From contig DASYUQ010000077.1 of assembly GCA_036001065.1 (NCBI GenBank), forward strand, positions 12,299 to 76,298: a DNA stretch of 64,000 nucleotides, in the 5' to 3' direction. The stretch's first letter is position 1; each line of letters begins with the position of its first letter. Under the pieces are notes generated by a model, which worked only from the letters and a program-made list of their open reading frames with translations, searched no databases and was not told where the DNA came from. Source of the stretch: Candidatus Methylomirabilota bacterium (GTDB lineage: Bacteria; Methylomirabilota; Methylomirabilia; Rokubacteriales; CSP1-6). The position numbers were made by a program, and so were the translations under genes. Of the stretch, positions 3,041 through 37,358 are shown one piece after another.

Positions 3041-3046
3041 CTTTCC

Positions 3047-13403: not shown

Positions 13404-13916
<513 letters not shown>

Positions 13917-13929
13917 GGGAGCCCTCCCC

Positions 13930-18225: not shown

Positions 18226-18822
18226 TCAGGCGAGCTCCCGGACCAGCGCCCGCGCGCGCTCCAGCTCCTCGGGCGTATTGACGTTCATGAACACGACGGC
18301 GGGGTCGACGTACCGCGCGATCTCCGCCTCATCGATCACGACGACGCGCACCTTGTCGAAGAACCCCACGATCTTCAGCCGCCCGGCCAGCAACCGCTCC
18401 TCCATGTGCGGTAGGCAGCTCTTCTGGTAGGCGGCGTGCATCGTCTCGTACTGATCGCCCACGCGCGGGATCACGACGTCCCCGAGCGGAGCGTGCTCGA
18501 CGACGAGACGGACGACCTCGCGGCGCAGGAACGGCATGTCACAGGCCACGGTGAACGCCGCCCCGCCGGAGGCCGCCTTGAGGCCCGAGTAGATGCCGCC
18601 CAGGGAGCCGTGATCCGGATAGACGTCGGGCACCATGGGCAGGCCCAGGAAGGCATAGAGCTCCGGCATGTTCGTGACGATCAGCAGGTCGTCCACGGCG
18701 CCCGCGAGCACCCCGGCCACGCGCTCGATGATCCGTCGGCCGCCCAGGTCCATCAGCGCCTTGGGTTGCCCGCCCATGCGGGTGCTCTTGCCACCGGCCT
18801 GGATCACGCCCGTGATTTTCAT
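18226..18822 (-). CDS. mobA: Molybdenum cofactor guanylyltransferase
   Basis: Start ATG 18822 (MKITGVIQAGGKSTRMGGQPKAL...). The first 29 aa of the track ORF are a read-through of repeat copy D. Confidence 0.7.
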   Translation of the reverse strand: MKITGVIQAGGKSTRMGGQPKALMDLGGRRIIERVAGVLAGAVDDLLIVTNMPELYAFLGLPMVPDVYPDHGSLGGIYSGLKAASGGAAFTVACDMPFLRREVVRLVVEHAPLGDVVIPRVGDQYETMHAAYQKSCLPHMEERLLAGRLKIVGFFDKVRVVVIDEAEIARYVDPAVVFMNVNTPEELERARALVRELA

Positions 18823-18896
18823 TCGAAGGGGGCCTCGGCGGCCCCCTCCGAGGCCTCCCCCAGGATCGATGGCGCCGGCAAAGCCGACGCTCGAAC
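18823..18896. repeat. GC-rich palindromic repeat element, copy D (reverse orientation), immediately 5' of mobA
   Basis: cgaagggggcctcggcggccccctccgaggcctcccccaggatcgatggcgccggcaaagccgacgctcgaa is about 90% identical to copy E over about 70 bp. Confidence 0.6.
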
Positions 18897-18919
18897 GCTG
18901 GCCTCGCAACAGCGGGGCG

Positions 18920-19531
18920 TCATATCACGCGCACGGCGCCCTGGCGGATCACGCGCGGCGGATCGACGGTGACGTCGAGCACCGTGGAGGCCAGCCCACC
19001 GGCCGTCGGGCCGCCGTCGAGCACCAGCGCGATCGCGCCGTCCAGATCACGCAGCACCGCGTCTGCAGTCGTCGGCGGAGGATCGTCGGACCGGTTCGCG
19101 CTGGGCGCCGTCACCGGTCCGCCGAGCGCTCGGGCCAAGCCGCGCGCGATCGGATGAAGCGAGAGCCGCACGCCGACCGTGCCCGTCCCCGCCGTGACCT
19201 CCACCGGCACCGACGGCTGGGCGGGCAGCACCAGCGTCAGGGCTCCGGGCCAGTGTTGGGCCATGAGTCGGCGGGCGGGCTCGGAGATGACCGCCAGCCG
19301 CTCGACCATCTCCACCGAGTCGACGAGCACCAGCAGCGGCTTCGATTCGGGGCGGCGCTTGACCTCGAAGATCCGCCTCACCGCCCCCCCATCCAGCGCC
19401 GCGGCGCCGAGGCCGTAGAAGGTCTCGGTGGGATAGGCGACCAGACCGCCCTTCTTCAGCGCGGCCGCCCCGCGCTGGAGCGCAGCGGCGTCAGGGTTCG
19501 CGGGATCGACCTTCAGGACCTCCGTGCCCAT
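18920..19531 (-). CDS. tsaC: L-threonylcarbamoyladenylate synthase (YrdC/Sua5 family)
   Basis: YPTETFYGLGAAA and the YrdC fold, 203 aa. Confidence 0.7.
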   Translation of the reverse strand: MGTEVLKVDPANPDAAALQRGAAALKKGGLVAYPTETFYGLGAAALDGGAVRRIFEVKRRPESKPLLVLVDSVEMVERLAVISEPARRLMAQHWPGALTLVLPAQPSVPVEVTAGTGTVGVRLSLHPIARGLARALGGPVTAPSANRSDDPPPTTADAVLRDLDGAIALVLDGGPTAGGLASTVLDVTVDPPRVIRQGAVRVI

Positions 19532-19546
19532 GCCCTCACGTCCCGG

Positions 19547-20062
19547 TTATTCGCGTGCCTTCATCCGTTCGGCGACGCGGCGCGCCCGCTCGTCGACCTC
19601 GGCGGCCAGGCGCCTTCGGTAGGCCGCCAGGCGCTCGCTCACGGCGGGATCGGCGACGGCCAGAATCTGCGCCGCCAGGATCGCGGCGTTCACCGCGCCC
19701 CAGGTACCGATGGCCACCGTGGCCACGGGCACGCCCTTGGGCATCTGGGCGATCGACAGGAGCGCATCGAGGCCGCCGAGCGGGGTGGAGGCGATGGGCA
19801 CGCCGATGACGGGCAGCGGCGAGGCCGCCGCCAGAACGCCGGGCAGCGCAGCGGCGCCGCCGGCCGCACCGATGAGGACGCCAAGGCCACGCGCATGAGC
19901 CGTCGCCGCGTAGTCGTGGGTCCGCTGGGGCGTGCGATGGGCGGAGGCCACCACCACCTCGCTGCCGATCTCGAGCGCATCGAGGACCTTCACTGCCTCC
20001 AGCATGACCTCGAGGTCCGAATCGCTGCCGAGCACGATGCCGACACGCACAGGTCTATCCAC
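19547..20062 (-). CDS. purE: 5-(carboxyamino)imidazole ribonucleotide mutase
   Basis: GTG start at 20062 with RBS AGGAAGGGG. It overlaps the purD stop as [20 protein letters not shown]...ASAHRTP...[12 protein letters not shown]. Confidence 0.8.
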
Positions 20063-21330
20063 TATCCGATCCCCTTCCTGCCGATGTCGGTGCGATAGTG
20101 CACACCGTCGAAGCGGATCCGCGCCGCCGCCTGGTAGGCGTGTGCGATCGCCTCGCGGAGCGCGGGTGCCGTGGCCGTCACGCTCAGCACGCGCCCGCCG
20201 GCCGTGACGAGCTTGCCGTCGCGCTCGGCCGTCCCCGCGTGGAAGACGCGCACGCCCTCCACCGTCTCGGCGGCGTCGATGCCGTCGATGGGGAGGCCCA
20301 TCGGGTAGCGCTCCGGGTAGCCGGCGGAGGCCAGCGTCACGCACACCGCCGCCTCGGGCCTCCAGGCGACGCGCTCGGGCAGCCGATCACCGCGCGCGGC
20401 GGCCAGCAGAAGCGGCACGAGGTCACTCCCGAGCCGCACCACGAGCGCCTGGCACTCCGGGTCACCGAAGCGGCAGTTGAACTCCAGCACCTTCGGTCCC
20501 TCGCCCGTCATCATCAGCCCGACGAAGAGCACGCCGCGGTAGGGCATACCGTCCTTGGCCAGCGCCGCGATCGTGGGATCGACGATACTCTCCATCACCT
20601 GCTGTTCGGCCGCGGCATCGATCCCCGGCACCGGCGAGTAGGCCCCCATGCCGCCGGTGTTCGGTCCACGGTCGTCGTCGAAGACCGTCTTGTGATCTCG
20701 TGCGGCGCCGAGAGGCACCGCGGCCTGGCCATTGGCCAGGGCGAAAAACGAGACCTCCCCACCACGCAAGAACTCCTCAATCACGACCTTCTTCCCGGCA
20801 TCGCCAAATACCCTGAGTTCCATCGCCGCCGATATGGCCTTGGCCGCTTCCTCGGCCGTCTGACACACGGTCACGCCTTTACCCGCGGCGAGTCCGTCGA
20901 CCTTTACGACCACGGGCTGGCTAAGCCCTCGGCAGTGGTCGATCGCGGCCCTGACGTCGTCAAAGGTCTCAAATCGCGCGGTGGGGATCCGGTAGCGCTT
21001 CATCAGCGACTTCGCGAACGCCTTCGATCCCTCGATCTGCGCCGCGGCCGCGGTCGGCCCGAAGACGGCCAGCCCCCGCGAGGTGAAGCGGTCGGCGAGT
21101 CCGGCGACCAGCGGCCCTTCGGGCCCCACGACGGTGAAGTCGATCCGCTCGCGCTCGGCGAAGGCGAGGAGCTCGTCGTGGGCCTCGGCTTTGATGGGCA
21201 CGCACTTCGCGTGACGCGCGATGCCCGGATTGCCGGGCGCGGCGTAGAGCGTGTCGACCAGCGGGCTCTGCGCGAGCTTCCAGGCCAGCGCGTGCTCCCG
21301 TCCCCCACCGCCCACCAGCAGCAGCTTCAT
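20062..21330 (-). CDS. purD: Phosphoribosylamine--glycine ligase
   Basis: Start ATG 21330 ([19 protein letters not shown]...) with an ATP-grasp domain. Confidence 0.85.
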
Positions 21331-22229
21331 TCGGGCGGGCCCCCTCCAGGCGGCTCCACGACTTCCAGGTGCGCGCGGGCGATGCGGGCCCACGGGCTAC
21401 CCGAGTCCAGCTCGAGGTACCGCTGCCAGTGCGCGACCGCTTCCGCGTTGCGGCCGGCCCGGGCGAGCGCCGCCGCCAGGTTGAAGTGAGCGTCGGCGTA
21501 GTCGGGCGACAGCTCGAGCGCGCGCCGGTAATGGACGATCGCCTGCTCGGCATCGCCGCAGTCCTCGTCGAGCGATCCCAGGTTGTAGGCGGCCTCGGCG
21601 CACCGGGGGTCCTGCTCCAGCGCGGCCGTGTACGCCGCCCGCGCCTCCTCGTATCGTCCCATCCGGTGCAGGAGGAGCCCGAGGTTGTTCCAGGCGGCGG
21701 CGTAGGTCGGATCGAGGGCCACCACGCGGCGATAGGCATCGATGGCGTCCTCCCAGTGCCCGGGATCGGCATCCCACTCGCTGGCCCGCTCGAACCAGGT
21801 CTCCGCCTGGGCGGCGGGCGGATACAGCGGCCGGACCAGCCCCGTGGCGAGGGTCGCCGCCGCGTCCTTGGTGAGGCCGCCGGCGTCGAGCGCGAGCACC
21901 GTCTGCCCGGTGCGGGGATCGAAGCGGACGCGCTCGGACTGAGCGAGGAGGCGATCGCCCTCGACGATGAAGCGCACCTCCGCCAGCGGGCTCTCCAGAT
22001 CGGGGTCCTGCTTCCGGAGCGCCAGCAGCGCCTCGCGGATCTGGCGTACCGATGCGCCCGCGTCCAGCAGCGCGGTGGCCGCCTTGAGCGCCAGGAGGTC
22101 GCGGAAGGTGTAGCCGGCGTCGCCGCGGAGCAGATCGAGCCGCCGGAGTTGGGCCAGCCGCCGGGGCGTGAGGCTCAGAATCCGGGTCAGATCCCGGAGC
22201 CCATAGATCCGTTCGGGACCCCGTGCCAT
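21327..22229 (-). CDS. MerR-like HTH + TPR-repeat protein embedded in the pur operon
   Basis: N-terminal IYGLRDLTRILSLTPRRLAQLRRLDLL (MerR-type HTH) followed by several TPR units (AAWNNLGLLLHRMGRYEEARAAY...). Its stop and start overlap purD and purH. Confidence 0.5.
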   Translation of the reverse strand: MARGPERIYGLRDLTRILSLTPRRLAQLRRLDLLRGDAGYTFRDLLALKAATALLDAGASVRQIREALLALRKQDPDLESPLAEVRFIVEGDRLLAQSERVRFDPRTGQTVLALDAGGLTKDAAATLATGLVRPLYPPAAQAETWFERASEWDADPGHWEDAIDAYRRVVALDPTYAAAWNNLGLLLHRMGRYEEARAAYTAALEQDPRCAEAAYNLGSLDEDCGDAEQAIVHYRRALELSPDYADAHFNLAAALARAGRNAEAVAHWQRYLELDSGSPWARIARAHLEVVEPPGGGPPE

Positions 22230-22234
22230 CGCGG

Positions 22235-23920
22235 TCAGTGGCGGAAGTGACGGATGCCGGTGAAGACCATCGCCACCCCGCGCTCGTCGGCCGCCGCGAT
22301 GACCTCCTGATCCCGGAGCGAGCCGCCCGGCTGGATGACGGCCGTGACCCCGGCCTGAGCCACGACGTCGAGACCGTCGCGGAACGGGAAGAACGCGTCG
22401 GAGGCGCAGACGCTGCCTTCGGTGCCGAGCCCGGCCTCGCGCGCCCGCATGACGGCCAGGCGCGCGGAGTCCAGGCGATTCATCTGCCCGGCCCCGACGC
22501 CGACCACCTGATCGCCTGTGGTCAGCACGATGGCGTTCGATTTGACGTGCTTGGCCACCCGCCAGGCGAAGCCGAGCGCGGCCATCTCGTCGGGAGTGGG
22601 CGCGCGCCGGGTGACCGTCTTGAGGGTCTTCTCATCGAGGTCGACCGCGTCCGCCGCCTGCACCAGCAGACCACCGAGCACGCTCCGGTACTCGACGAGC
22701 CGCGGGAGCCGTTCGCACGGTACCTGGAGCACACGGCACTTCTTCTTCGTCCGCCTGAGCTCCTCCAGCGCCTCGGGAACGAAGGCGGGCGCGAAGAGGA
22801 TCTCGACGAAGATGCCGGCGAGCTCCCGGACGACGGCCGGGTCGAAGGCGCGGTTGACGCCGACGATCCCGCCGTAGATCGATACCGGATCCGACGCTTT
22901 CGCCTTGGCCATGGCGGCGCCGGCGGTGGCGGCGACCGCGGCACCGCACGGGTTGGTGTGCTTGACGACGACGGCCGCCGGCTCGGCGAACTCGAGCAAC
23001 AGCCCCAGGGCCGCCGAGAGGTCGAGCAGATTGTTGTAACCGAGCTCGGGCCCGTGCAGCTGCCGCATGGCGCCGAGCCCGAAGGGGAACCCGCCGAGGA
23101 GGCGGTAGAACGCCGCCGCCTGGTGGGGGTTCTCGCCGTACCTCAGACCGAGCGCCCGCTCGGCCTCGAGCCGCAGCCGCTCCGGAAACTGCTCCGTTCG
23201 AGCGCCGGCTTCGCCGGCGCAATCCGTCCTGGGGGAGGTCTCGGAGGGGACCGTCGCGCCCTCCGGGCGCGCCTGTGGAGTCGCCCCCTCCGACCGGGAT
23301 GGGAGGCGAAGCCCCCCTCCGAGGGAGGCGGCCCCCTCCGAAGAAAAATGAGCGGCGATCGCCGCGTCGTATTCGGCCGTCCGCCGGAACGCTTGCTGGG
23401 CCAGACGAGCGCGCGTCTCGTCGCTAAGCGCGCCGCCGCTGGCCCGCAGCTCTCCCAGGACCTCCGCGTACTGCGAGGGATCGGTGACGACGGCCACGCT
23501 CGCGTGGTTCTTGGCGGCGGCGCGAATCATGGCCGGACCCCCGATGTCGATCTGCTCGATCGCCTCGGCGCGCGTGACGCCGGGCCGCGCCACCGTGGCC
23601 TCGAACGGGTAGAGCGCCACGACGACGAGGTCGATCGGCGGGATCCCGTGCTGCTCGAGCGCGGCCGCATGCTCGGGGGAGTCCCGGCGGGCCAGGATGC
23701 CTCCGTGAATCTTGGGATGGAGCGTCTTGACACGACCGTCGAGCATCTCGGGAAACCCGGTGACGTCGGCGACCTCGCGCACCGGCACCCCCGAGTCCCG
23801 GAGCAGCCGAGCCGTCCCGCCCGTCGAGAGGAGCTCCACCCCCAGCTCCCGGAGGGCTCTGGCCAGCTCGACCACACCGGTCTTGTCGTGAACGCTCACG
23901 AGCGCACGCCGGACCTTCAT
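22235..23920 (-). CDS. purH: Bifunctional AICAR transformylase / IMP cyclohydrolase, with repeat-derived about 50-aa insertion in the interdomain linker
   Basis: MGS-like N-domain (VRRALVSVHDKTG...) and AICARFT C-domain. The linker segment SSEGAASLGGGLRLPSRSEGATPQARPEGATVPSETSPRTDCAGEAGARTEQ is encoded by repeat copy C. Confidence 0.85.
   Translation of the reverse strand: MKVRRALVSVHDKTGVVELARALRELGVELLSTGGTARLLRDSGVPVREVADVTGFPEMLDGRVKTLHPKIHGGILARRDSPEHAAALEQHGIPPIDLVVVALYPFEATVARPGVTRAEAIEQIDIGGPAMIRAAAKNHASVAVVTDPSQYAEVLGELRASGGALSDETRARLAQQAFRRTAEYDAAIAAHFSSEGAASLGGGLRLPSRSEGATPQARPEGATVPSETSPRTDCAGEAGARTEQFPERLRLEAERALGLRYGENPHQAAAFYRLLGGFPFGLGAMRQLHGPELGYNNLLDLSAALGLLLEFAEPAAVVVKHTNPCGAAVAATAGAAMAKAKASDPVSIYGGIVGVNRAFDPAVVRELAGIFVEILFAPAFVPEALEELRRTKKKCRVLQVPCERLPRLVEYRSVLGGLLVQAADAVDLDEKTLKTVTRRAPTPDEMAALGFAWRVAKHVKSNAIVLTTGDQVVGVGAGQMNRLDSARLAVMRAREAGLGTEGSVCASDAFFPFRDGLDVVAQAGVTAVIQPGGSLRDQEVIAAADERGVAMVFTGIRHFRH
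23199..23349. repeat. GC-rich palindromic repeat element, long copy C (forward orientation), in-frame inside purH
   Basis: The 5' module ttcgagcgccggcttcgccggcgcaatccgtcctgggggaggtctcggagggga matches the reverse complement of copy E's 3' end (A and C share the core TTCGAGCGCCGGCTYCGCCGGC and GGGGAGG-YCGGAGGGG). The 3' module ggccccctccgaagaaaaa matches copies A and B. Confidence 0.6.
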
Positions 23921-23924
23921 TCGA

Positions 23925-24539
23925 TCACCATCCCACGATCACTCTCCTGCCGACGATCCTAAGCCGCCCTTCCGCGAAGAGCCGCACCGCCTGCGGATAG
24001 AGCCGGTGCTCCTCGGCGAGGATCCGTGCCGCCAGCGTCTCCTCGGTGTCGTCGGGCTGCACGGGGACGCTCGATTGTAAGATGATCGGGCCGGTGTCCA
24101 CGCCTTCGTCGACGAAGTGGACGGTGGCGCCCGAGATCTTCACGCCATGGTCGAGCGCCTGGCGCTGGGCGTTCAGCCCGGGGAAGGCCGGCAGCAGCGA
24201 GGGGTGGATGTTCATGATCCGCCCCGTCCACGCCCGGACGAACGCCGGTCCGAGGACACGCATGAAGCCGGCCAGGCAGACGAGCCCGACCTGATGCGCC
24301 TCGAGGACCTTGGTGATGGCGGCGTCGTAGGCCTCGCGGGCGCCGAAGTCCTTGGGGTTCAGGAGCACGGCCGGCACCCCCCGCTCGGCGGCGATCTTCA
24401 GCGCCCGGGCGCCCTCGCGATCGGAGACGACCACGGCGACCCGGGCCGGAAAGTCGGTGCGCGCGCTGGCGTCGAGGATCGCCTGGAGGTTCGAGCCGCG
24501 ACCGGAGGCGAGCACGCCGACCCGGAGAAGCTCCTTCAC
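23925..24539 (-). CDS. purN: Phosphoribosylglycinamide formyltransferase
   Basis: VGVLASGRGSNLQAIL...HPSLLPAFPG. Confidence 0.8.
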   Translation of the reverse strand: MKELLRVGVLASGRGSNLQAILDASARTDFPARVAVVVSDREGARALKIAAERGVPAVLLNPKDFGAREAYDAAITKVLEAHQVGLVCLAGFMRVLGPAFVRAWTGRIMNIHPSLLPAFPGLNAQRQALDHGVKISGATVHFVDEGVDTGPIILQSSVPVQPDDTEETLAARILAEEHRLYPQAVRLFAEGRLRIVGRRVIVGW

Positions 24540-25834
24540 GCGGCGTCGCGCTCCTTGGGGGCGGCGGCGTGAAGGGCGCAGATCGGGCAGCGTGGCACCT
24601 GTCGCATGATGGCCGAGTCCCGCGGGAAGAAGCGGGCCAGGGACCAGTCGAGCGCCACCTGGAGTTGCTTGCGGACGCCGACCAACTTCAGGAGGTGGAG
24701 CGCGTTCCAGAAGAGCCAGGCCGGGTAGCCGGAGAACCGGAACCCCATGACCTCGACCACGGCGTCCTTCTCGCCCAGCGACACCAGCATCCCGCGCGGC
24801 GCAAAGTCGATCGGCCGCAGCGCGCGGCCGGCGAGGTCGGCCACGATGTTCTCGGCGACCAGGCGCCCGTGGGCCAGCGCCGCCGGGATGATGGGAATGG
24901 AGGCTTGGGGCTTGCCCTCGATGCTGACCGCGTCCCCGGCGCCGTAGACCTCCGGATGGCCGGGAATCTGGAGGAAGCTGTTGACGACGATCCGCCCCAG
25001 TCGATCGTGGCCGACGGGGAGGTGGGCCAGTGCCGGGTGGCCCTTGACGCCCGCGGCCCAGACGATCAGGCCCGCCGCGATCGACTCGCCACCCCCTACC
25101 TCGACGACGCCGGGCAGCACCCGCGTGACGCGCGTTCGGGTCTTGACCTCGATGCCCTCGCGGTGCAGCCGCCGGTGCGCTCGTTCCGCGAGCGCGGGAT
25201 GGACGCCGCGCAGGATCTCCTCGCCCGCCTCGAGGACGACCAGGCGGTAGTCGCCGGCCTCGATGCCGCGGTAGCGCGGCACCACATACGAATGGAAGAA
25301 GTCGTGCAGCTCCGCCACCAGCTCGACGCCGGTGTAGCCGCCGCCAACGACGCAGACCGTCAGCATGCGCCGACGGACGTCGGGATCGGGCTCGTGATCG
25401 GCGTGCTCGGCGAGGTCGATCAGATGATCGCGCAGGAGGATGGCGTCGTCGAGGTGCTTGTACGGGAGCGCGTGCTCCTCGACGCCGGGGATCCCGAAGC
25501 TCGGCGTCGTTCCGCCGAGCGCGATCACCAGACGGTCATAGGCCACGGTCCCCTCGGCGAGGACGACCCGACGCGCGGCCAGATCGATGTCGAGCACCTG
25601 GTCGCGGCGGAAGCGGAATCGGCGGGCCCCGCGGAGGTCGCGGATCGGTTGGATGATGTGGCGCGGCTCGACGAGCGAGGAGGCCACCTGGGGCAGCAGC
25701 GGGGTGAACAGCAGATAGTTGCGGTCGCTCACCAGGAGCAGCTCGACATCCTGCCGGGGGCCCAGCCGGCGATCCAGCACGCGGATCGCCTCCAGCCCGG
25801 CGAAGCCGCCGCCCAGCACCGCGATGCGGCTCAC
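24536..25834 (-). CDS. ndh: Type II NADH:quinone oxidoreductase (NDH-2)-family flavoprotein, embedded in the pur operon
   Basis: GTG start 25834 (VSRIAVLGGGFAGLEA...). It has two Rossmann GxGxxG motifs (the second is VVGGGYTGVE). GTGA overlap with the purM stop and ATGA overlap with the purN start. Confidence 0.6.
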   Translation of the reverse strand: MSRIAVLGGGFAGLEAIRVLDRRLGPRQDVELLLVSDRNYLLFTPLLPQVASSLVEPRHIIQPIRDLRGARRFRFRRDQVLDIDLAARRVVLAEGTVAYDRLVIALGGTTPSFGIPGVEEHALPYKHLDDAILLRDHLIDLAEHADHEPDPDVRRRMLTVCVVGGGYTGVELVAELHDFFHSYVVPRYRGIEAGDYRLVVLEAGEEILRGVHPALAERAHRRLHREGIEVKTRTRVTRVLPGVVEVGGGESIAAGLIVWAAGVKGHPALAHLPVGHDRLGRIVVNSFLQIPGHPEVYGAGDAVSIEGKPQASIPIIPAALAHGRLVAENIVADLAGRALRPIDFAPRGMLVSLGEKDAVVEVMGFRFSGYPAWLFWNALHLLKLVGVRKQLQVALDWSLARFFPRDSAIMRQVPRCPICALHAAAPKERDAA

Positions 25835-26862
25835 GCCACCAGCTCCACGCCGCGCTCGCCGGCCACGATCTCGCCCAGCCGGTGCACCGTCTCGCCGGCG
25901 ACGGCGAGCGCCGCTCCGGCGGCCTCGGCGTGCGGCGCCGGCACGACGACCACGTAGCCGATCCCCATGTTGAAGGTCCTGAACATCTCCGCGTCGGCCA
26001 CCCGGCCGGCCCGCTGCAGCGTCTCGAACACGGCCGGCACCTGCCACGACTTGCGGTGGATCAGGGCGCGACACCCCTCGGGCAGCACGCGGGGAACGTT
26101 CCCGACGATCCCGCCGCCCGTGATGTGCGCCATCGCTCCCACCTCCATCCGCTCCAGCAAGGCGAGGATCGGGCGCACGTAGATCCGCGTCGGCTCCAGC
26201 AGCTCGGCGGCGACGGCGCGGCCCGTTCCGGGCAGCTCGGCGTCGATCGACAGCTTGAGGACGTCGAAGACGATCCGGCGCGCCAAAGAGTAGCCGTTCG
26301 AGTGGAGGCCGGACGATGCCAACCCGAGCAGGATGTCTCCCGGTCGCACGCGAGCGCCGTCGACGATGCGGCTCTGCTCCACGACGCCCACGGCGAACCC
26401 GGCCAAATCGTATTCTCCCGGCCCGTAGAGGTCGGGCAGCTCGGCGGTCTCCCCCCCGATCAGCGCGCAGCCCGCCCGCCGGCACCCCTCGACCACCCCG
26501 CGCACGATCGTCTCCACCCGCGCGGGGTCCAGGCGCGCGATGCCGATGTAATCCAGAAAGTAGAGGGGCTCGGCGCCGTGGACGAGAAGGTCGTTGACGC
26601 CCATGGCCACCAGGTCGATGCCCACGGTCTGGTGGCGGTCGGCCATGAAGGCCACTTTGAGCTTCGTGCCCACGCCGTCCGTCGACGACACCAGCACCGG
26701 CTCGCGGAACTTCTGGGGCACCCTGACGAACCCCGCGAAGGCCCCGATGCCGCCGATGACCTCCGGCCGGAAGGTGGTACGGGCCAGCGGCGCGATGCGG
26801 CGAACCGCCTCGTCGCCGGCCTCGATGTCGACGCCGGCGTCACGGTAGGTCGGTCGATCCAT
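25831..26862 (-). CDS. purM: Phosphoribosylformylglycinamidine cyclo-ligase (AIR synthetase)
   Basis: Start ATG 26862 (MDRPTYRDAGVDIEAGDEAV...). The first 45 aa of the track ORF are read-through of repeat copy E. Confidence 0.85.
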   Translation of the reverse strand: MDRPTYRDAGVDIEAGDEAVRRIAPLARTTFRPEVIGGIGAFAGFVRVPQKFREPVLVSSTDGVGTKLKVAFMADRHQTVGIDLVAMGVNDLLVHGAEPLYFLDYIGIARLDPARVETIVRGVVEGCRRAGCALIGGETAELPDLYGPGEYDLAGFAVGVVEQSRIVDGARVRPGDILLGLASSGLHSNGYSLARRIVFDVLKLSIDAELPGTGRAVAAELLEPTRIYVRPILALLERMEVGAMAHITGGGIVGNVPRVLPEGCRALIHRKSWQVPAVFETLQRAGRVADAEMFRTFNMGIGYVVVVPAPHAEAAGAALAVAGETVHRLGEIVAGERGVELVA

Positions 26863-26877
26863 CGGCGGCGCTAGCTC

Positions 26878-26952
26878 AGTCGGAGGGGGCCTCGGCGGCC
26901 CCCTCCGAGGCCTCCCCCAGGAAGGGATGGCGCCGGCGGAGCCGGCGCTCGA
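26878..26952. repeat. GC-rich palindromic repeat element, copy E (reverse orientation), in the purF-purM intergenic spacer
   Basis: agtcggagggggcctcggcggccccctccgaggcctcccccaggaagggatggcgccggcggagccggcgctcgaa. Its 3' 22 nt are the exact reverse complement of copy A's 5' 22 nt (ttcgagcgccggctccgccggc). Confidence 0.6.
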
Positions 26953-27000
26953 AACAGCGAGCAGTGGCCGGAGTAAGCTGGCGCCATTCGCCAACAACCG

Positions 27001-28413
27001 CTAGTCGTCGAACAGCCTGAGCTGCGGGCTCGGCTCGGGCGCGATCCCCACCCGGTAATTGCCGGTGAAGCAGGCGTGGCAGAAGTGGCTGGGGTCCGCG
27101 CCGGTGGCCTTCAGCATGCCCTCGAGCGAGAGGTATCCGAGCGAATCGGCGCCGACATACCGGCGGATCTCTTCGACGTTGTGACTGGCGCCGATCAGCT
27201 CCCTCCGGGTCGGGGTGTCGATGCCGTAGTAGCAGGGCCACTTGATCGGCGGCGACGAGATCCGCATGTGGACCTCGCGGGCGCCGGCGTTCCGGATCAT
27301 CCTCACGATCTTGCGGCTGGTGGTGCCGCGGACGATCGAGTCGTCGACGACCACGACCCGCCGCCCCTCCAGCATCTCCCGCATCGGGTTGAGCTTCACC
27401 TTGACGCCGAAGTGGCGGATGCCCTGCTTGGGCTCGATGAACGTGCGGCCCACGTAGTGGTTGCGGATGAGGCCCATCTCGTAGCGCACCCCCGACTGCT
27501 CGGAGAAGCCGAGCGCCGCGCTGGTGCCCGAGTCCGGCACCGGGATGACGATGTCGGCCTCCACCGGGTGCTCGCGAGCCAGCTCCCGCCCGAGCGCCTT
27601 GCGGACGGTGTGCACGTTGCGGCCCCAGAGGACGGAGTCGGGCCGCGCGAAGTAAACGTACTCGAAGACGCAGTGCAGGCGCTCCCCGGCGGGGGCGTAG
27701 CGGCGAGATTGCACGCCGGCCTCCGAGATGACGACGATCTCCCCCGGCTCGACCTCGCGCTCGTACTTCGCCTCGATGAGGTCGAGCGCGCACGTCTCCG
27801 AGGCGACCACCCACGAGTCGGTGAGCCTCCCCAGTCCCAGCGGCCGGAAGCCATTCGGGTCGCGCACGGCGTACATGGCGTCCGGCGTGAGGATCAGCAG
27901 CGAGTATGCCCCCGTCACCTGCCGGAGCGCATGCGGGAGTTGCTCCGCCAGCGTCCCGGCGGGGGCGCGCGCGAGGAGGTGGAGGATGACCTCGGTGTCG
28001 GAGTTGGACTGGAAGATGGCGCCCTCCCGCTCCATCTCCCTCCGCAGCGCCTCGGCGTTGGTCAGGTTGCCGTTGTGGGCGATGGCGATCGGGCCGCGGG
28101 CGGTGTTGGCCGTGATGGGCTGGGCGTTGCGGAGCTTCGAGGAGCCGGCCGTCGAGTAGCGGACGTGACCGATGGCGCGGTGGCCGGGAAGCCGGCGCAG
28201 GCGCTCGGGGCCGAAGACGTCGGCGACCCATCCCATCGCCTTCTCGGTGTGGAAGCTCTGCCCGTCGGTCGCGGCGATCCCCGCGGACTCCTGCCCGCGG
28301 TGCTGGAGCGCGTAGAGACCGAGGTAGGCGACGTTGGCGGCCTCCGGATGATTCCAGATGCCGAACACCCCACACTCGTCGTGGAACTTGTCGTCACGCC
28401 AGGTGACGCTCAA
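27001..28413 (-). CDS. purF: Amidophosphoribosyltransferase
   Basis: Short propeptide, then CGVFGIW (Ntn Cys), a PRTase domain, and C-terminal Fe-S cysteines. Confidence 0.85.
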
Positions 28414-30616
28414 AGCCCCTCCTCCAAGCCTGTTCGAGGCTCTCGATCGCGGCGTCGATCACCGTCGTCGACCCGCAGCGAACTCTCAGCCGCTCGCTCC
28501 CCGTGGTCCCGATCCAGCGCCACGGAATGGCCGACTCCGCCATCAGCCCCTCGAACTCCAGGACCCGCGCCGGGTCGACGGAGACGACCACCCGCGACGG
28601 TCCTTCGCCGAAGAGCATGAGATCGGCCCGCGCTCCCTCGGGCAGCGTCACGCTACATCCCACCGGCTCCCGGCCGGTGACGCAGCCCTCCGCCAGCGCC
28701 ACCGCCAGGCCGCCCTCGGCGCAATCGTGCGCGGAGAGCACGAGCCCGGCGCCGATCGCCGCCTGGACGGCCGACTGTACCCGCCGCTCCCGCCCCAGGT
28801 CCAGCGGCGCCAGCGGCCCGGCGAGGCGGCGGTGGAGCATCCACAGGTACTCGCTTCCCCCCAGGCTGACGGCGTCGGGACCCAGCAGGGCGAGACGGTG
28901 GCCCGCCCCCTTGAACCACTGCGTGACCGCCCGCCCCGCCTCCGCGAGCACGCCGACCACGCCCACGACGGGCGTGGGGAGAATGGCCTGCCCGTTGGTT
29001 TCATTGTAGAAGGAAACGTTGCCGCCCACTACCGGCAGATCGAGGGCGCGGCAGGCCTCGGCGAGGCCGTCGATCGCCTCGGCGAACTGCCAGAGGATCT
29101 CGGGCCGCTCGGGCGAGCCGAAATTCAGGCAGTCCGTGACGCCCAGCGGTCGACCACCCGCGCAGGAGACGTTCCGCGCCGCCTCGCAGACCGCCATGGC
29201 CGCTCCGCGACGGGGATCGAGAAACACTTGCCGGCCGTTGCCGTCGGTCGAGATCGCCAGGGCGCGGCGCGTGCCCTTCACTCTCAGCACCGCCGCGTCG
29301 GAGCCCGGCAGCACCAGGGTGTTGATCCCGACCTGCTGGTCGTACTGGCGGAACGCCCACTCCTTGGAGCCGATGGTCGGCGACCCCAGGACCGCCAGCA
29401 GCGCCTCCTCGTAATCCGCCGGCTCCGGCAGGGCCAGGGGATCGAAGGCCCGTAGCTCGGCCAGCCACGGGGGCGGCGCGGTCGGCTTCTCGTAGCGAGG
29501 CGCCTCGGCCAGCGCCTTCACTGGCACGCGGGCGGCGATCTCCCCGTGGTGGCGCACGGTCAGGTTGCCGTCGTCGGTGACCCGTCCGATCTCGACGGCG
29601 TCCAGCTCCCACTTGGCGAAGACCCGCCGCACCTCCTCCTCGCGGCCGCGCGCCACGACCAGCAGCATGCGCTCCTGCGACTCCGAAAGAAGGATCTCGT
29701 AGGGGGTCATCTCGATCTCGCGCTGGGGCACGCGCGACAGCTCCACCTCCATGCCGGTGCCGGCCCGCGCCGGCATCTCCGAGGTGCAGCAGGCCAGCCC
29801 GGCCGCGCCCATGTCCTGGATCCCCACCACGGCGCCGGTCTGCATGAGCTCCAGACAAGCCTCGAGGAGCAGCTTCTCCGTGAAGGGATCGCCCACCTGC
29901 ACCGTCGGGCGGCGCTCCTGGGCACGCTCGTCGAACGTCGACGAGGCCATCGTGGCGCCGTGGATGCCGTCGCGCCCCGTCTTGTTGCCGACGTAGAACA
30001 CGGGATTCCCCACCCCCTCGGCGCGGGCGCGGAAGATCCGGTCGGCCCGGACGAGCCCCACGCACATCACGTTGACGAGGGGGTTGCCCGCATACTCGGG
30101 GGCGAAGGCGATCTCGCCGCCGACGGTGGGGCAGCCGAAGCAGTTGCCGTACCAACTGATGCCGGACACGACCCCCTCGATCAGCCGGCGCGTCCGGGGG
30201 TCGTCCGGCTCGCCGAAGCGGAGGGAATCGAGGATGGCGATGGGGCGGGCGCCCATCGTAAAGATGTCCCTCAGGATTCCGCCCACCCCGGTGGCGGCGC
30301 CCTGGAAGGGCTCGATGAACGAGGGGTGATTGTGGCTCTCGATCTTGAACACGACGGCCCAGCCGTCGCCGATGTCGACGACACCGGCGTTCTCGCCGGG
30401 CCCCTGCAGCACATGCGGCCCCGCTTGGGGCAGCCGGGCCAGGAACACGCGCGAGTGCTTGTAGGCACAGTGCTCCGACCAGAGGGCGGAGAACAGCCCC
30501 AGTTCGGTGTAGGTGGGCTCGCGACCGAGCCGCTCGATGATCCGGTCGTATTCGTCGGCAGTGAGGCCCAGTTCGCGCGCGAGGTCCGGTGTCGCCTTCG
30601 GCTCCGACCCCGTCAA
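28394..30616 (-). CDS. purL: Phosphoribosylformylglycinamidine synthase subunit PurL (FGAM synthase II)
   Basis: 740 aa with [12 protein letters not shown]. It overlaps purF by 20 nt. Confidence 0.85.
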
Positions 30617-30630
30617 TCCGCCTCCAGCGG

Positions 30631-31344
30631 TTACCGCTTCAAGAAGCCGCCGTCCTCGACGAGGCTGCCGAGGAGGGACTGGAAGATCAGCAGCCCGTCG
30701 GTGCTACCCATCGCCGGCTCGGCCGCCCGCTCGGGATGCGGCATGAGTCCCAGCACGGTCCCCTCCTCGTTGACGACGCCGGCGATGCTCTCCAGGGAGC
30801 CGTTGGGATTGGCCGCCCGCGTGACCTGGCCTTCGGCCGTCGCGTAGCGGAACACGATCTGGCCGTTCTTCCTGAGCTTCGCCAGCGCCCCGGCGTCGGC
30901 ATAGTACTTGCCCTCGCCGTGGGAAATCGGCATCGTCAACACCTGCCCCACGCGCAGACCCCGAGTGAAGGGCGTGTCCACGTTCTCGACCACGAGATGC
31001 GTCTGCTGGCAGCGATACTGCAGGCACTCGTTGCGCATGAGCGCGCCGGGCAGGAGGCCGGCCTCGCACAGGATCTGAAACCCGTTGCAGGAGGCGAGCA
31101 CATGCCCGCCGCGCGCGACGAAGTCACCCAGCGCCTCCACCACCGGCGAGCGGCCGGCCACGGCGCCGGCTCTCAAGTAATCGCCGTAGGAGAAGCCGCC
31201 CGGCAGGATGACGCAGTCGAAGTCATCGAGGTTCCGGTCGCGGTGCCAGATGTACTTGACCGGCTGCCGCAGGACTTCCGAGACCACGTAGTGGAAGTCG
31301 CAGTCGCTCCAAGTCCCCGGGAACACGACCACGCCGAATCTCAT
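30631..31344 (-). CDS. purQ: Phosphoribosylformylglycinamidine synthase glutaminase subunit
   Basis: [16 protein letters not shown]..., a class I glutamine amidotransferase. Confidence 0.85.
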
Positions 31345-31414
31345 GGAGTCGATTCTCCTCTCGAGGCAGGACTATCTTACCGCTGCCAGGCGGCACCGAG
31401 CAAGCGAAGCGCGC

Positions 31415-31648
31415 TCACTCGATCGTGTACTCCTCGAGCAGGGGGTTGGCGAGGAGCCGGCGGCACATCTCGTCGGCGCGGGCGCGGGCCTGCGCGGCCG
31501 TGGGAGCCTCCAGCTCGACCTCGATCACCTTGCCCACCCGCAGGTCGGCCACGTCGGTGAAGCCGAGGCCCATCAACGCGCGCTTGACGGCCGCGCCCTG
31601 AACGTCGAGGATGCCCGGCTTGAGCCGGACGAGCACGCGCACTTTCAT
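31415..31648 (-). CDS. purS: Phosphoribosylformylglycinamidine synthase subunit PurS
   Basis: Start ATG 31648 (MKVRVLVRLKPGILDVQG...), about 77 aa. ATGA overlap with the purC stop. Confidence 0.75.
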   Translation of the reverse strand: MKVRVLVRLKPGILDVQGAAVKRALMGLGFTDVADLRVGKVIEVELEAPTAAQARARADEMCRRLLANPLLEEYTIE

Positions 31649-32388
31649 GTCCGCGGCGCGCCGCCTTCGACGAGACGCCGGAACACTTCCTGGTAGGCGT
31701 CCTCCACGCCCCCCAGATCCTGGCGGAAGCGGTCCTTGTCCAGCTTGGCGCGGGTCCGGGCGTCCCACAGGCGGCAGGTGTCGGGTGAGATTTCGTCGCC
31801 CAGGTAGAGCCGGCCGCGGGCACGCCCGAACTCGAGCTTGAAGTCGACCAGCAGGAGCCCCCGGCGCGCCATGTGCGGCCGGAGTACGCGATTGATCCGG
31901 AGGGCCATCCGCCGGAGCCAGGCCAGCTCCCGGGGTGTGGCCAGCCCCAGCAGCCGCACGTGGTCGTCGGTGATCATGGGATCACCGAGCGGATCCGACT
32001 TGTAGTAGAGCTCCACGATCGGCTGCTTGATCGGAGTCCCTTCCTCGAACCCGGTGCGCTTGGCCAGGCTGCCGGCCACGATGTTGCGGACGATCGTCTC
32101 GATGCGGATGATCTCGAGCCGCCGGCAGAGCATCTCGCGGTCGGAGAGGGTGGCCAGATAGTGGGTGGGCACCCCCGCCCGCTCGAGCCGCTGGAACAGC
32201 GCCGCCGACATCCGGTTGTTCACCACGCCCTTGCCGACGATGGTCCCGCGCTTGAGCGCGTTGAAGGCGGTGGCGTCGTCCTTGAAGTACTGGATGATCA
32301 GATCCGGCCGGCTGGTCGCGTAGACGATCTTCGCCTTGCCTTCGTAGAGCTTCTCGCCCTGCTCGACCTCCGGAATCGCCCTCTTCAT
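31645..32388 (-). CDS. purC: Phosphoribosylaminoimidazole-succinocarboxamide synthase
   Basis: Start ATG 32388 (MKRAIPEVEQGEKLYEGKAKIVY...). Confidence 0.85.
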   Translation of the reverse strand: MKRAIPEVEQGEKLYEGKAKIVYATSRPDLIIQYFKDDATAFNALKRGTIVGKGVVNNRMSAALFQRLERAGVPTHYLATLSDREMLCRRLEIIRIETIVRNIVAGSLAKRTGFEEGTPIKQPIVELYYKSDPLGDPMITDDHVRLLGLATPRELAWLRRMALRINRVLRPHMARRGLLLVDFKLEFGRARGRLYLGDEISPDTCRLWDARTRAKLDKDRFRQDLGGVEDAYQEVFRRLVEGGAPRT

Positions 32389-32413
32389 CGCTCTACCCTC
32401 TATTTCGCGCTTT

Positions 32414-32520
32414 TCGAGCGGCGGCTTTGCCGCCGCGATCCTATGGGGTGGTTCGGAGGGGGCCGCGAGGCCCCCTCTGACTAGGGATCCCGGAGGGGGC
32501 GGCGCCCCCCTCCGACAAAA
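32414..32520. repeat. GC-rich palindromic repeat element, copy B (forward orientation), overlapping the purB 3' end
   Basis: ttcgagcggcggctttgccgccgcgatcctatggggtggttcggagggggccgcgaggccccctctgactagggatcccggagggggcggcgcccccctccgacaaaa. It is near-identical to copy A. The 5' hairpin has compensatory changes (GCGGCGGCtttGCCGCCGC versus GCCGGCtccGCCGGC). Confidence 0.65.
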
Positions 32521-33808
32521 GTCCGGCCCGCCTGAAGATCGCGTCGACATGACGGAGGTACCACGCCGGATCGAAGCACGCCTTCAGCTCGTCCGGCCCG
32601 ACTCGCTCGGTGATCGCCGGGTCGGCGGCGAGAAGCTCCAGGAATGACCGCCGCTCCCGCCAGGCCTGCATGGCGTTGCGCTGCACGATCTCGTAGGCCG
32701 CCTGGCGCGCCAGCCCCGTCTCGGTGAGCTTGAGCAGCACCCGCTGGGAGTAGACGAGGCCGTAGCTCCGCTCGAGGTTCTCCGCCATGCGAGCCGGGTC
32801 GACCTCGAGGCCCTCGACGACGAACGTCGTCAGATCGAGCAGGTAGTCGACGAGGATGGTCGAGTCCGGCAGGATGACGCGCTCGACGGAGGAGTGGCTG
32901 ATGTCGCGCTCGTGCCACAGCGCGACATTCTCGAGCGCGGCCAGCGCGTTGGTCCTGACGAGCCGCGCCAGCCCGCAGATGCGCTCGGTCAGCTCGGGGT
33001 TGCGCTTGTGGGGCATGGCGCTGGAGCCCTTCTGGCCCTCGGCGAAGGGCTCCTGGGCCTCCAGGATCTCCGTCCGCTGGAGGCCCCGGATCTCCAGGGC
33101 GATCTTCTCGAGGGAGGCGGCGGCGACGGCGAGCCCCGTAGAGAACTCCGCGTGGCGGTCGCGCTGGACGATCTGGGTGGAGACGGCCGCCGGCTCCAGG
33201 CCCAGCTCCCGGCAGACCTCCTCCTCGATCTCGGGCTCGACGTGGGCGAAGTTGCCGACGGCTCCCGACAGCTTGCCCACGGCGACGGCCGCCCGCGCCC
33301 GGCGGAGGCGCTCGAGGTTCCGCCCGGCCTCCGTGTACCACACCGCCACCTTCAGGCCGAACGTCGTCGGCTCGGCGTGAACGCCGTGAGTCCGGCCGAC
33401 GATTAGGGTGTCCTTGTGGCGGCGGGCCAGCTCGCCGAGTGCCGCGCGCAACCGCTCCTGGCCGGCGATGAGGAGGTCGGCGGCCTCGCGAAGCTGGAGG
33501 GCCAGCGCCGTGTCCCACACGTCGTTGGTGGTGAGCCCGATGTGGACGAAGCGGGAGTCCGCGCCCAGCTGCTCCTCGAGGCTGGTGAGGAGCGCGATCA
33601 TCTCGTGCTTGACCCGCCGCTGGATCTCGAGGATCCGGTCGACGTCGACGCGAGCCTTGGCCCGGACGCGGGCCAAGGCCTCGACCGGGATGCGGCCGCG
33701 GCGGGCATAGGCCTCGCACACGGCCAGCTCCACGCGCAGCCAGGTGGCGTACTTGGACTCCTCGCTCCAGATTCGCCCCATGGCCGGACGCGTGTACCGC
33801 TCGATCAC
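32441..33808 (-). CDS. purB: Adenylosuccinate lyase, with C-terminal about 25 aa and stop codon supplied by a repeat element
   Basis: Canonical PurB through ...WYLRHVDAIFRRAGL. It then reads LSEGGAAPSGIPSQRGPRGPLRTTP* from repeat copy B. The same repeat-encoded peptide frame is seen in the CoA-transferase (SEIPSQRGPHDPLRTSP). Confidence 0.85.
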   Translation of the reverse strand: MIERYTRPAMGRIWSEESKYATWLRVELAVCEAYARRGRIPVEALARVRAKARVDVDRILEIQRRVKHEMIALLTSLEEQLGADSRFVHIGLTTNDVWDTALALQLREAADLLIAGQERLRAALGELARRHKDTLIVGRTHGVHAEPTTFGLKVAVWYTEAGRNLERLRRARAAVAVGKLSGAVGNFAHVEPEIEEEVCRELGLEPAAVSTQIVQRDRHAEFSTGLAVAAASLEKIALEIRGLQRTEILEAQEPFAEGQKGSSAMPHKRNPELTERICGLARLVRTNALAALENVALWHERDISHSSVERVILPDSTILVDYLLDLTTFVVEGLEVDPARMAENLERSYGLVYSQRVLLKLTETGLARQAAYEIVQRNAMQAWRERRSFLELLAADPAITERVGPDELKACFDPAWYLRHVDAIFRRAGLLSEGGAAPSGIPSQRGPRGPLRTTP

Positions 33809-33955
33809 GCCCTCACCTTAAAGGAAAACCCGGGCAAGGGAAAGCGGCAAGCCGGGCCGGACAACGAGCCAGACGAGGCCCGAAGGAGGAGCCCACCGGA
33901 GCGTACGTGTTTGTACGTGAGGATGGGCGACGACTGAGAACGAAGTCTGGCGACG

Positions 33956-35216
33956 TTATCCGGCCCGGCTCAGTTCGCGGGGGAGATTGCGCCGGTCCAG
34001 CGGGCCGTAGGTCGTCAGCGCCAGCCGGTCCTCGTCCAGGAGCTGGCTGACGAGCACCTGGACCTCCTCGTGGCGGACGGCGTCGATGGCTGCGAGCATG
34101 GCGGCCATCGTGAGGAACGAGCCGAAGTGCAGCTCGTGCTTGGCCAGCCGGTTCATCCGGCTCGAGGTGGACTCCAGCGACAGCATGAGGCTGCCCTTGA
34201 GGTGATCCTTGGCGCGCCGCAGCTCGTCCTCCCGCACGCCGTGCTTCTTGAGATCCCGGATCTCCTTGAGGATCGACTTGAGCACCTTCGAGAAGTTGGG
34301 CGCGTCGGTCGCCGCGTAGATGTAGAGGGTGCCCGTGTCGCGGAAGGCCTGGGCGCCGGAGTGGATGGAGTAGACCAGCCCCTGACGTTCGCGGACCTCC
34401 TGGAAGAGGCGGGAGGACATGCTGCCGCCGATGATGTCGTTGAGGAGGAAGAGCGCGTACCGCTCGGGTGCGGAGTGGCTGAGCCCGGGGAAGCCCATCA
34501 CCACGTGGACCTGCTCCAGCTCCTTCTGGACGATGTTCACACCCGGCTTCATCACCGGCACCGTGTTCGGGCGCTCGATCGGCTGGCGGCGGAAACCGTC
34601 GAAGCCGGCGCCGAACAGTTCCAGCACTCGGTCGTACGTGACATTGCCGGCCACGGCGATGATGATCTTGGGGGGCGCGTAGTGCTCCACGAAGTGCGTG
34701 TGGATGGCGTCCCGCCCGTAGCCGATGACGGCCTCCCGGGTGCCCAGGATCGGCCGCCCCAGCGGGTGCCCTTCCCAGACGTGCGCGGCGAAAAGATCGT
34801 GGATGAGGTCGTCGGGCGTGTCCTCGACCATCTTGATCTCCTGCAGCACCACGGACTTCTCCCGCTCCAGCTCCTCGGCGTCGAAGAGCGGGTGCAGGAG
34901 GATGTCGGTGAGCAGGTCCACGGCCAGGGGTAGATGCTCGTCGAGGACCTGCACGTAGAAGCAGGTGTGCTCCTTCGTGGTGAAGGCGTCCATCTGCCCG
35001 CCCACGGAATCCATGGTGCGGGCGATCATCTCGGCGCTGCGCGTCGCCGTGCCCTTGAAGACCAGGTGCTCGATGAGGTGGGACATGCCGGCCCGGCCCT
35101 CGGGCTCGTGGCGGGAGCCGGTCTCCACCCAGACGCCGACGGCCACCGACCGGACGTGGGACATCCGCTCGGTGACGACGCGGATGCCGTTCGGCAGCAG
35201 GCCCTTCCGGTATTCT

Positions 35217-35224
<8 letters not shown>
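33956..35224 (-). CDS. M16-family zinc metallopeptidase (insulinase-like)
   Basis: Inverted zincin motif HLIEHLVFKGT...E, 422 aa. Confidence 0.7.

Positions 35225-37358
<2,134 letters not shown>

Follow-up and report, generated by a model that had tools for sequence, protein, structure and literature searches.

A Bacillus-type purine biosynthesis cluster of Candidatus Rokubacteria with two embedded non-pur genes and no linked purK

A purine biosynthesis (pur) cluster lies on the minus strand of a 64,000-nt stretch of contig DASYUQ010000077.1 (assembly GCA_036001065.1, contig positions 12,299–76,298; hereafter the window). It holds two non-pur genes, one for an NDH-2-family flavoprotein and one for a protein with an N-terminal helix-turn-helix and C-terminal tetratricopeptide repeats (HTH/TPR protein), and it has purE without purK. 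The locus raises the question of what these two genes do inside a pathway operon, and of how carboxyaminoimidazole ribonucleotide (CAIR) is made where purK is missing. As an operon the cluster is of a known kind, with three twists specific to its lineage, and not a new system. It is probably a vertically inherited Rokubacteria pur cluster of Bacillus-type gene order, with a conserved HTH/TPR candidate regulator, an NDH-2-family passenger confined to a sub-lineage, a class I PurE, and purK located elsewhere or absent. The two embedded genes would have different histories, the HTH/TPR gene being fixed and the flavoprotein gene having been inserted once and then lost once. Two leads are worth following: the His-to-Ala change in the PurE signature and the fixed MerR-fold/TPR gene.

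Gene order and ancestry

Thirteen consecutive, tightly packed minus-strand genes occupy positions 19547–33808. The encoded order is PurB-C-S-Q-L-F-M, the flavoprotein, PurN-H, the HTH/TPR protein, PurD-E. Genes were called from third-position G+C (GC3) and frame analysis, and identities were taken from Pfam and NCBIfam (Table 1). An earlier sequence-only reading had described this thirteen-gene cluster; its gene coordinates are exact, and its count of eleven pur genes with two embedded non-pur genes agrees with the family models. Half of the junctions overlap (6 of 12), and two more have gaps of only 4–5 nt. The many stop/start overlaps noted in that reading are real and are kept in relatives. 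Its description of the flavoprotein gene as coupled on both sides stands for the overlaps at purM and purN; the overlap at purN is GTGA, not ATGA. In relatives, whose loci bear working labels (L-numbers), purL has the same length in L001 and L003, and purM in L001.

The pur operon of Bacillus subtilis is purEKBCSQLFMNHD. Ten consecutive genes are in the same order here, purB-C-S-Q-L-F-M-N-H-D, on one strand with small gaps. Split PurS, PurQ and small PurL, tight packing and overlapping stops and starts are likewise common to both. The window differs in having purE at the 3' rather than the 5' end, no purK and two inserted non-pur genes. The 5' purE-purK pair and the leader control element (PurBox or purine riboswitch) of the Bacillus type are not found, and no other Rfam element lies upstream. 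The cluster is also joined to pnp and an M16 peptidase gene upstream and to tsaC downstream. A locus in a Bacillota metagenome-assembled genome (L010) has the order purE-purB-purC-purF-purM.

For each embedded protein the best homologues carry the label Candidatus Rokubacteria, Rokuibacteriota or Methylomirabilota, at 91% identity for the NDH-like protein and 98% for the TPR protein. These matches place the organism in Candidatus Rokubacteria (Methylomirabilota). It is an uncultured soil bacterium, of a phylum with no cultured members to our knowledge. The arrangement is seen again in over 20 related contigs and is therefore not a chance product. The same cluster with the same neighbours is present in L001, L003, L004, L006, L008, L009, L049, L050, L052, L055, L058–L060, L066 and L080. 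A PurE-seeded scan of a genome collection gave at least four Rokubacteria loci. A purN-seeded metagenome scan, a sample unbiased for the presence of the flavoprotein gene, gave about 19 Rokubacteria-type operons.

Gene orientation carries little weight in this window. Its G+C content is 70%, and raw lists of open reading frames (ORFs) are full of spurious frames. Filtering of stop-to-stop frames by GC3 leaves 40 minus-strand ORFs across the 64 kb and one short plus-strand ORF (11912–12343), which is nested in a longer minus-strand ORF. As nearly all supported ORFs are on the minus strand, co-orientation of the pur genes is weak evidence for an operon. The co-orientation over 14 kb stressed in the sequence-only reading is real but carries this discount. 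The same-strand run continues upstream (proS, infB, a DHH phosphoesterase gene, ribF, pnp, the M16 peptidase gene) and downstream (tsaC/sua5, a mobA-like gene, pgl, glyA, nrdR). Because packing continues on both sides, the ends of the operon are not settable from the sequence.

The two embedded genes

The HTH/TPR protein consists of a MerR-type winged HTH domain (residues ~1–75), a four-strand beta subdomain (~86–113), a disordered linker (~112–137) and a four-repeat TPR domain (~138–290). In all 15 relatives' loci that have an aligned orthologue, its gene is placed between purH and purD. Collinearity of the orthologues extends over all domains, down to 58% identity. The gene does not occur in more distant pur clusters such as L072, L082, L084, L089 and L092. 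Of the two embedded genes it is the conserved one, fixed in the Rokubacteria-type operons examined.

The MerR assignment comes from the fold. MerR_1 (PF13411) matches with E 0.0036 and 17.8 bits, below its cut-off of 21.6, and when a profile of the N-terminal domain was searched against the sequences of the PDB, the best match was the MerR-type CvkR (7xn2) at E 0.11. Since this sequence signal is insufficient, folds were compared. AlphaFold models had a pLDDT of 80 at full length and 82 for residues 1–118. The modelled N-terminus has the winged-helix order beta-a1-a2-beta-a3-a4. The structures it matches best are minimal MerR-type domains bound to DNA, those of TnrA, GlnR, TipAN, RacA and CarA (Foldseek probability up to 0.98). 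The canonical MerR coiled-coil dimerisation helix with its effector site is missing from the model; the beta subdomain, linker and TPR domain stand in its place. TPR_11, TPR_1 and TPR_2 match at E 1e-26 to 1e-31. Foldseek aligns the TPR domain with consensus TPR and OGT TPR structures (E 6e-10, TM 0.9 on target). Arg/Lys-rich helices at residues 11–30 are invariant across orthologues. A MerR-HTH/TPR protein between purH and purD, as read earlier from the letters, is thus upheld in position, in TPR content and in MerR-like fold, and not in a MerR sequence match above threshold.

The HTH/TPR protein is, on its modelled fold, the best candidate for a cluster-specific regulator. The suggestion in the sequence-only reading that the embedded MerR-like protein could regulate its own operon is plausible and gains support at the level of the fold. 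The winged helix would bind DNA, and the TPR domain would receive a protein or peptide signal. TnrA and GlnR, which govern nitrogen metabolism in Bacillus as minimal MerR-type regulators, are its best analogues and are controlled by contact with an enzyme, so a protein signal read by the TPR domain is a reasonable mechanism; the proposed logic of DNA binding plus protein signal is akin. Identity to the HTH/TPR protein is only 15–16%, and TnrA and GlnR have ~80–130 aa with a short C-terminal tail, in contrast to the beta subdomain and TPR array found here. The RNPP regulators (PlcR, NprR, Rap-like, PrgX) likewise combine an N-terminal HTH with a C-terminal TPR domain. They have an XRE-type HTH and sense secreted peptides in Firmicutes. 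The HTH here is MerR-type; the likeness, drawn from general knowledge, is one of architecture, and no homology is claimed. Literature searches on MerR/TPR proteins with purine operons returned nothing relevant. The protein is a possible purine-pathway regulator of a new kind; no purine riboswitch is recognisable at the locus in this group.

A leader element that such a regulator might use is not apparent. The spacer between the M16 peptidase gene and purB is 147 nt (33809–33955). In relatives it ranges from 10 to 221 nt, the M16 peptidase gene being only 10 nt from purB in some. Among close relatives only the last ~40 nt are conserved (33809–33850), with CTTTCC-N17-TAAGGT-N6-GTG at the purB start. 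This block may be either the -10 box of a leaderless mRNA or a Shine-Dalgarno region, as its spacing fits both equally. MerR-family operators are palindromes in promoters with a long spacer (19–20 bp); comparison of 10 relatives gave no conserved palindrome upstream of purB. The whole window had no match to Rfam at gathering thresholds, and the operon at E<=1 gave a spurious miRNA match only; hence no purine, ZTP or other known riboswitch is recognised in the window. The proposal in the sequence-only reading of a functional 146-nt purB leader gained no support. The mechanism of regulation stays inferred because the spacer is variable, there is no palindrome, and only the start-codon block is conserved.

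The flavoprotein is, by sequence, a genuine NDH-2-family member. Similarity to NDH-2 is full-length (E 1e-46 to 1e-49), with PDB matches to mycobacterial Ndh (9mqy, 1.7e-49) and the Caldalkalibacillus enzyme (4nwz, 1.5e-46). Pyr_redox_2 (PF07992) scores 153 bits, and the NDH2_C membrane anchor (PF22366) is above its cut-off. Two GxGxxG motifs are intact in the translation aligned to 4nwz, GGGFAG at about residue 8 and GGGYTG at about residue 165, and an acidic residue follows the second, as in NDH-2. The conserved quinone-site motif of NDH-2 is AQxAxQ, with Q317 and Q321 in the C. thermarum enzyme (PMC6167311). Here the position aligns to IPAALA, a difference from NDH-2 that all 16 sampled members of the clade share without change and that replaces both glutamines. 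Further differences are an extra, invariant C-terminal RCxxC motif (RCPIC in the window protein) and a clade-specific Cys preceding the second Rossmann motif. The protein would be a membrane-associated, NADH-dependent (quinone-related) oxidoreductase.

A subfamily search seeded with the nearest outgroup gave 117 aligned sequences, including that of the window. The C-terminal CxxC is present in 116 of the 117, and APxA replaces AQxAxQ in most. Members (labelled P0241 and P0391–P0507; one bears the automatic label NdbB) span Acidobacteria, Dormibacteraeota, Xenobia, Thermodesulfobacteriota and 'bacterium HR37'. This appears to be a large, uncharacterised, multi-phylum NDH-2 subfamily marked by APxA and a C-terminal RCxxC. 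Outside Rokubacteria its genes occur in the contexts PNPOx-NDH-FIST, SpoU-NDH and UbiA prenyltransferase-NDH, and none stands beside pur genes among the contexts examined.

Within Rokubacteria the flavoprotein gene is restricted. It is present in three of the ~19 operons of the purN-seeded sample (L050, L052, L056), and purM adjoins purN in about 15. All orthologues with at least 75% identity and a recovered upstream flank lie between purM (or purF) and purN; these positions cover the window, L001–L004, L008, L050, L052 and L131–L134, and the short contig L056 shows the purN side only. Conservation of the ndh-like gene in the pur operons of relatives, a question put by the sequence-only reading, is accordingly a property of one sub-lineage, in part of which the gene was lost again. 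In a bootstrapped neighbour-joining tree (PurF, PurN, PurH, PurD and the TPR protein; 1840 columns, 500 replicates), the clade with all NDH-bearing operons has 100% support. An NDH-less trio (L006, L009, L049) groups with the NDH-bearing L008 at 98%. Monophyly of the NDH-bearing operons has 0% bootstrap support, which rules out a single gain without loss. Recent horizontal transfer is ruled out by composition (GC 0.712, GC3 0.915, like the neighbours). One insertion and one clean loss is the simplest history: the gene would have entered once in one Rokubacteria sub-lineage and later been cleanly lost in a nested lineage. Riding on a constitutively expressed housekeeping operon, it would not serve a purine-synthesis step. 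The conclusion is that the flavoprotein gene is a passenger of long residence, co-expressed with the operon, rather than a part of the pathway. It is a dated case of operon remodelling, in which an essential operon received the gene, kept it for long with translational-coupling overlaps and then cleanly lost it, and it draws attention to the large APxA/C-terminal CxxC subfamily.

Several observations weigh against these readings, and three other accounts were considered. The cluster is most likely transcribed as one or few long units, a statement for which spacing and the lack of terminator-like sites are the only grounds. It is highly improbable that the two embedded genes were inserted independently, have promoters and terminators of their own and bear no relation to how the operon is expressed: the gaps of 4–5 nt or overlaps flanking both genes leave no room for terminators, these junctions are kept in relatives, and terminator-like sites are not above chance (3 found, 4.2 expected). 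Promoter-like sites are not above chance either in a consensus scan limited to sigma-70-type sites, and internal promoters within coding sequence are possible. An adaptive embedding, in which the flavoprotein reoxidises NAD(P)H made during one-carbon supply and inosine monophosphate (IMP) oxidation or acts on an intermediate or cofactor, is unlikely, although somewhat less so. The gene is strictly retained across many lineages, with 4-nt overlaps at purM and purN kept in every orthologue for which gene calls are available, which makes a functional tie to the pathway possible. The protein is 76–91% conserved, at least equal to the flanking PurM and PurN, and glyA and ribF belong to the wider same-strand cluster. 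Loss of both AQxAxQ glutamines means that quinone reduction is not assured, and the non-canonical quinone site and the invariant CxxC tail also count in favour of this account. This account is opposed by the restriction to one sub-lineage, with purM and purN adjacent in most Rokubacteria-type operons, by the clean loss, and by the subfamily in other phyla, never beside pur genes and in one member adjoining a UbiA prenyltransferase gene. Literature searches on NDH-2 in pur operons found no relevant link between such a flavoprotein and purine synthesis, and we know of no purine step that needs one.

The strongest of these three competitors concerns the HTH/TPR protein, which may be a protein-protein adaptor or chaperone-type modulator with a MerR-like fold rather than a transcription factor, and could organise or control Pur enzymes. 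CbpM is a non-DNA-binding adaptor of such a fold. The sub-threshold MerR_1 match, the missing dimerisation helix and the protein-binding nature of TPR domains all suit this view. So does the lack of an operator, for which the region upstream of purB was searched and found conserved only next to the start codon. The DNA-bound state of the best structural matches, the invariant basic helices and the known use of HTH-plus-TPR architecture in the RNPP regulators speak for DNA binding instead. An adaptor is held to be the less probable of the two, though a serious minority view, and the preferred reading remains a candidate regulator.

PurE and the missing purK

The window's PurE is, by sequence, a class I (N5-CAIR mutase-type) protein. 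It matches nearly all class I PDB structures at E 8e-46 to ~1e-38. Class II structures (2h31, 3rg8, 4ja0, 5c5d) match at 4.5e-6 to 6e-5, some 40 orders of magnitude more weakly (human PAICS 2h31, 4.5e-6; T. denticola 3rg8, 1.7e-5). TIGR01162, the N5-CAIR mutase model, is passed (Table 1). The SAHRTP motif is present, and the His of SAHR(T)P is universally conserved in PurE (PMC9376930). The second His of the class I signature GGAAHLPG is replaced in the window and in nine of nine related PurEs, which have GGAAALPG. The position is presumably important, an assumption taken from studies of A. aceti H89; His89 mutants of the A. aceti enzyme have reportedly been crystallised and retain some activity. 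Literature searches on the role of this second histidine gave nothing relevant.

That purK is missing from this cluster, as noted in the sequence-only reading, is confirmed: E. coli PurK has no tblastn match in the 64 kb (E<=10) or in any fetched Rokubacteria locus. The same query does find purK beside purE in 13 loci of other phyla. The location of purE is itself variable within the phylum. The gene is missing from the cluster end in L001 (14622–16530), L052, L055, L058, L066 and L080, where purD is followed by sua5/tsaC.

His-to-Ala also occurs in eight methanogen-type archaeal PurEs (SAALPG or AAALPG) and in two other bacterial loci without adjacent purK, and His is kept in 13 of 13 purE genes with adjacent purK (loci of other phyla), a pattern that covers only three or four independent lineages. 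Methanogens are reported to lack purK and to possess a PurE that is class I-like, and a missing purK, it is argued there, does not have to point to an enzyme yet unknown (PMC3261824). The methanogen protein resembles that of the window in class I type, in the lack of purK nearby and in the Ala. It differs in being only 45–51% identical, which makes convergence the probable origin of the Ala common to both. Rokubacteria also differ from methanogens in habitat, being soil bacteria and not inhabitants of high-CO2 environments.

The sequence-only reading had offered two explanations, purK elsewhere or a class II aminoimidazole ribonucleotide (AIR) carboxylase. The latter would account for the lack of purK in the window and in all relatives' loci, but it is scarcely credible given the structure matches and the passed mutase model; the active-site check points the same way, GGAAALPG being a one-residue variant of the class I signature. 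An ordinary N5-CAIR mutase with purK elsewhere in the genome and a neutral His-to-Ala change stands about an even chance. In its favour are 16 loci of other phyla with a His-type purE and no adjacent purK, the mobility of purE in the Rokubacteria group, the residual activity of the A. aceti mutants mentioned above, and the coverage of the purK searches, which comprises the 64-kb window and relatives' loci, so that purK may simply lie elsewhere. It is opposed by the Ala variant, which never co-occurs with adjacent purK (0 of 13) and is common to the PurEs of methanogens reported as purK-less (PMC3261824). No purK is present in the ~0.4 Mb of Rokubacteria DNA examined, which is weak evidence as most of it is the same region.

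A third option, beyond the two offered earlier, is a class I-type PurE that does not need PurK, which methanogens are reported to have (PMC3261824). The shared His-to-Ala change makes PurK-independent CAIR formation a real possibility by analogy. The PurE of T. maritima retains the His, which is a caveat: should this organism be PurK-independent, as has been discussed, the correlation of His or Ala with PurK is not absolute. The specific proposal, that Rokubacteria make CAIR without PurK by a class I-derived GGAAALPG PurE and that the same change arose independently in methanogens, is accordingly tentative and rather doubtful. Were it true, the Ala variant, which coincides with the lack of a linked purK, could mark PurK-independent CAIR synthesis and a PurE of a third functional type. 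A sequence signature would then be available for the CAIR step in organisms whose PurE is class I-like and which lack purK, a long-standing puzzle.

In five loci of unrelated Proteobacteria (L021, L023, L025, L026, L027) purE is likewise followed immediately by a Sua5/TsaC gene, as at 18920–20062 of the window. Their PurEs have an AAHLAG variant, and no purK is adjacent.

Neighbouring genes, boundary repeats and local rearrangements

Table 1. Features of the pur cluster, its neighbours and its repeats in the window; genes are listed in minus-strand order
Feature	Position	Strand	Product and size	Evidence	Junction with next gene
pnp	35217–37358	-	PNPase; upstream neighbour	Pfam	
M16 peptidase gene	33956–35224	-	M16 peptidase; upstream neighbour	Pfam	
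purB	32441–33808	-	adenylosuccinate lyase, 455 aa	Lyase_1 + ADSL_C; TIGR00928 516 bits (cut-off 326)	52-nt gap
purC	31645–32388	-	SAICAR synthetase, 247 aa, ATG at 32388	PF01259 E 1e-84	ATGA overlap
purS	31415–31648	-	77 aa	PF02700 E 1e-28	70-nt gap
purQ	30631–31344	-	FGAM synthase glutaminase subunit	GATase_5 E 2e-41	14-nt gap
purL	28394–30616	-	small type, 740 aa, TTG start	FGAR-AT_linker + two AIRS/AIRS_C pairs	20-nt overlap
purF	27001–28413	-	amidophosphoribosyltransferase	TIGR01134 571 bits (cut-off 350)	138-nt gap (26863–27000)
purM	25831–26862	-	AIR synthetase, 343 aa from ATG at 26862	AIRS + AIRS_C	GTGA overlap, 4 nt
NDH-like gene	24536–25834	-	NDH-2-family flavoprotein, 432 aa	Pyr_redox_2 E 1e-44; NDH2_C 35.3 bits (cut-off 27.7)	GTGA overlap, 4 nt
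purN	23925–24539	-	GAR transformylase, 204 aa, GTG start	Formyl_trans_N E 1.5e-58	4-nt gap
purH	22235–23920	-	561 aa	MGS + AICARFT_IMPCHas; NF002049 706 bits	5-nt gap
HTH/TPR gene	21327–22229	-	HTH/TPR protein, 300 aa	TPR Pfam models; MerR-type fold	ATGA overlap
purD	20062–21330	-	GAR synthetase, 422 aa	GARS_N + GARS_A + GARS_C	1-nt overlap (TAGTG)
purE	19547–20062	-	171 aa, class I type, GGAAALPG	AIRC E 2e-56; TIGR01162 181 bits (cut-off 149.6)	15 nt to Sua5/TsaC gene
Sua5/TsaC gene	18920–19531	-	downstream neighbour	same order in relatives	
mobA-like gene	18226–18909	-	MobA-like NTP transferase; downstream neighbour	same order in relatives	
REP-like palindrome	2501–2528				
REP-like palindrome	26882–26906				
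REP-like palindrome	32455–32478				
REP-like palindrome	32492–32513				

GC-rich palindromes resembling repetitive extragenic palindromic (REP) elements, of the form GGAGGGGGC-N-GCCCCCTCC, number four in the window against ~0.1 expected. Three of the four are at pur gene boundaries. They may stabilise transcripts or promote rearrangement. The same kind of palindrome is repeated in the M16-purB spacers of L004 (~3006–3205) and L049 (~1561–1783); in L004 a ~43-nt unit occurs in about three direct copies.

The window's purB product is ~24 aa longer than those of relatives (431–432 aa), and its frame runs through two REP-like palindromes (32441–32515) before the stop. The purF-purM spacer, which holds another of the palindromes, is ~10–14 nt in relatives, i.e. 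~125 nt shorter. In L004 (8572–11299) and L008 (2796–5552) purM is missing and the order is purF-NDH-purN; in L051 (2–1328) purF is followed directly by purN. Loss of purM together with gain and loss of the flavoprotein gene marks the purF/purN interval as a rearrangement hot spot. PurH is ~40–50 aa longer than the family model, with residues 2–561 mapping to 4–510 of the 510 positions of NF002049. The extra part is a low-complexity Ser/Gly/Ala/Pro-rich linker between MGS and AICARFT (residues ~193–245, window ~23186–23344). PurH has 521–544 aa in relatives.

Downstream of the mobA-like gene lies a conserved ORF (17370–18164), present in L001 and L004; it has no match in Pfam or NCBIfam, and its counterparts in these two loci have none in Pfam. 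Farther along the same-strand run, nrdR overlaps glyA (13404–15198). The run also includes genes for a B12-binding radical SAM protein (11197–13119) and a multihaem cytochrome c (6798–7472).

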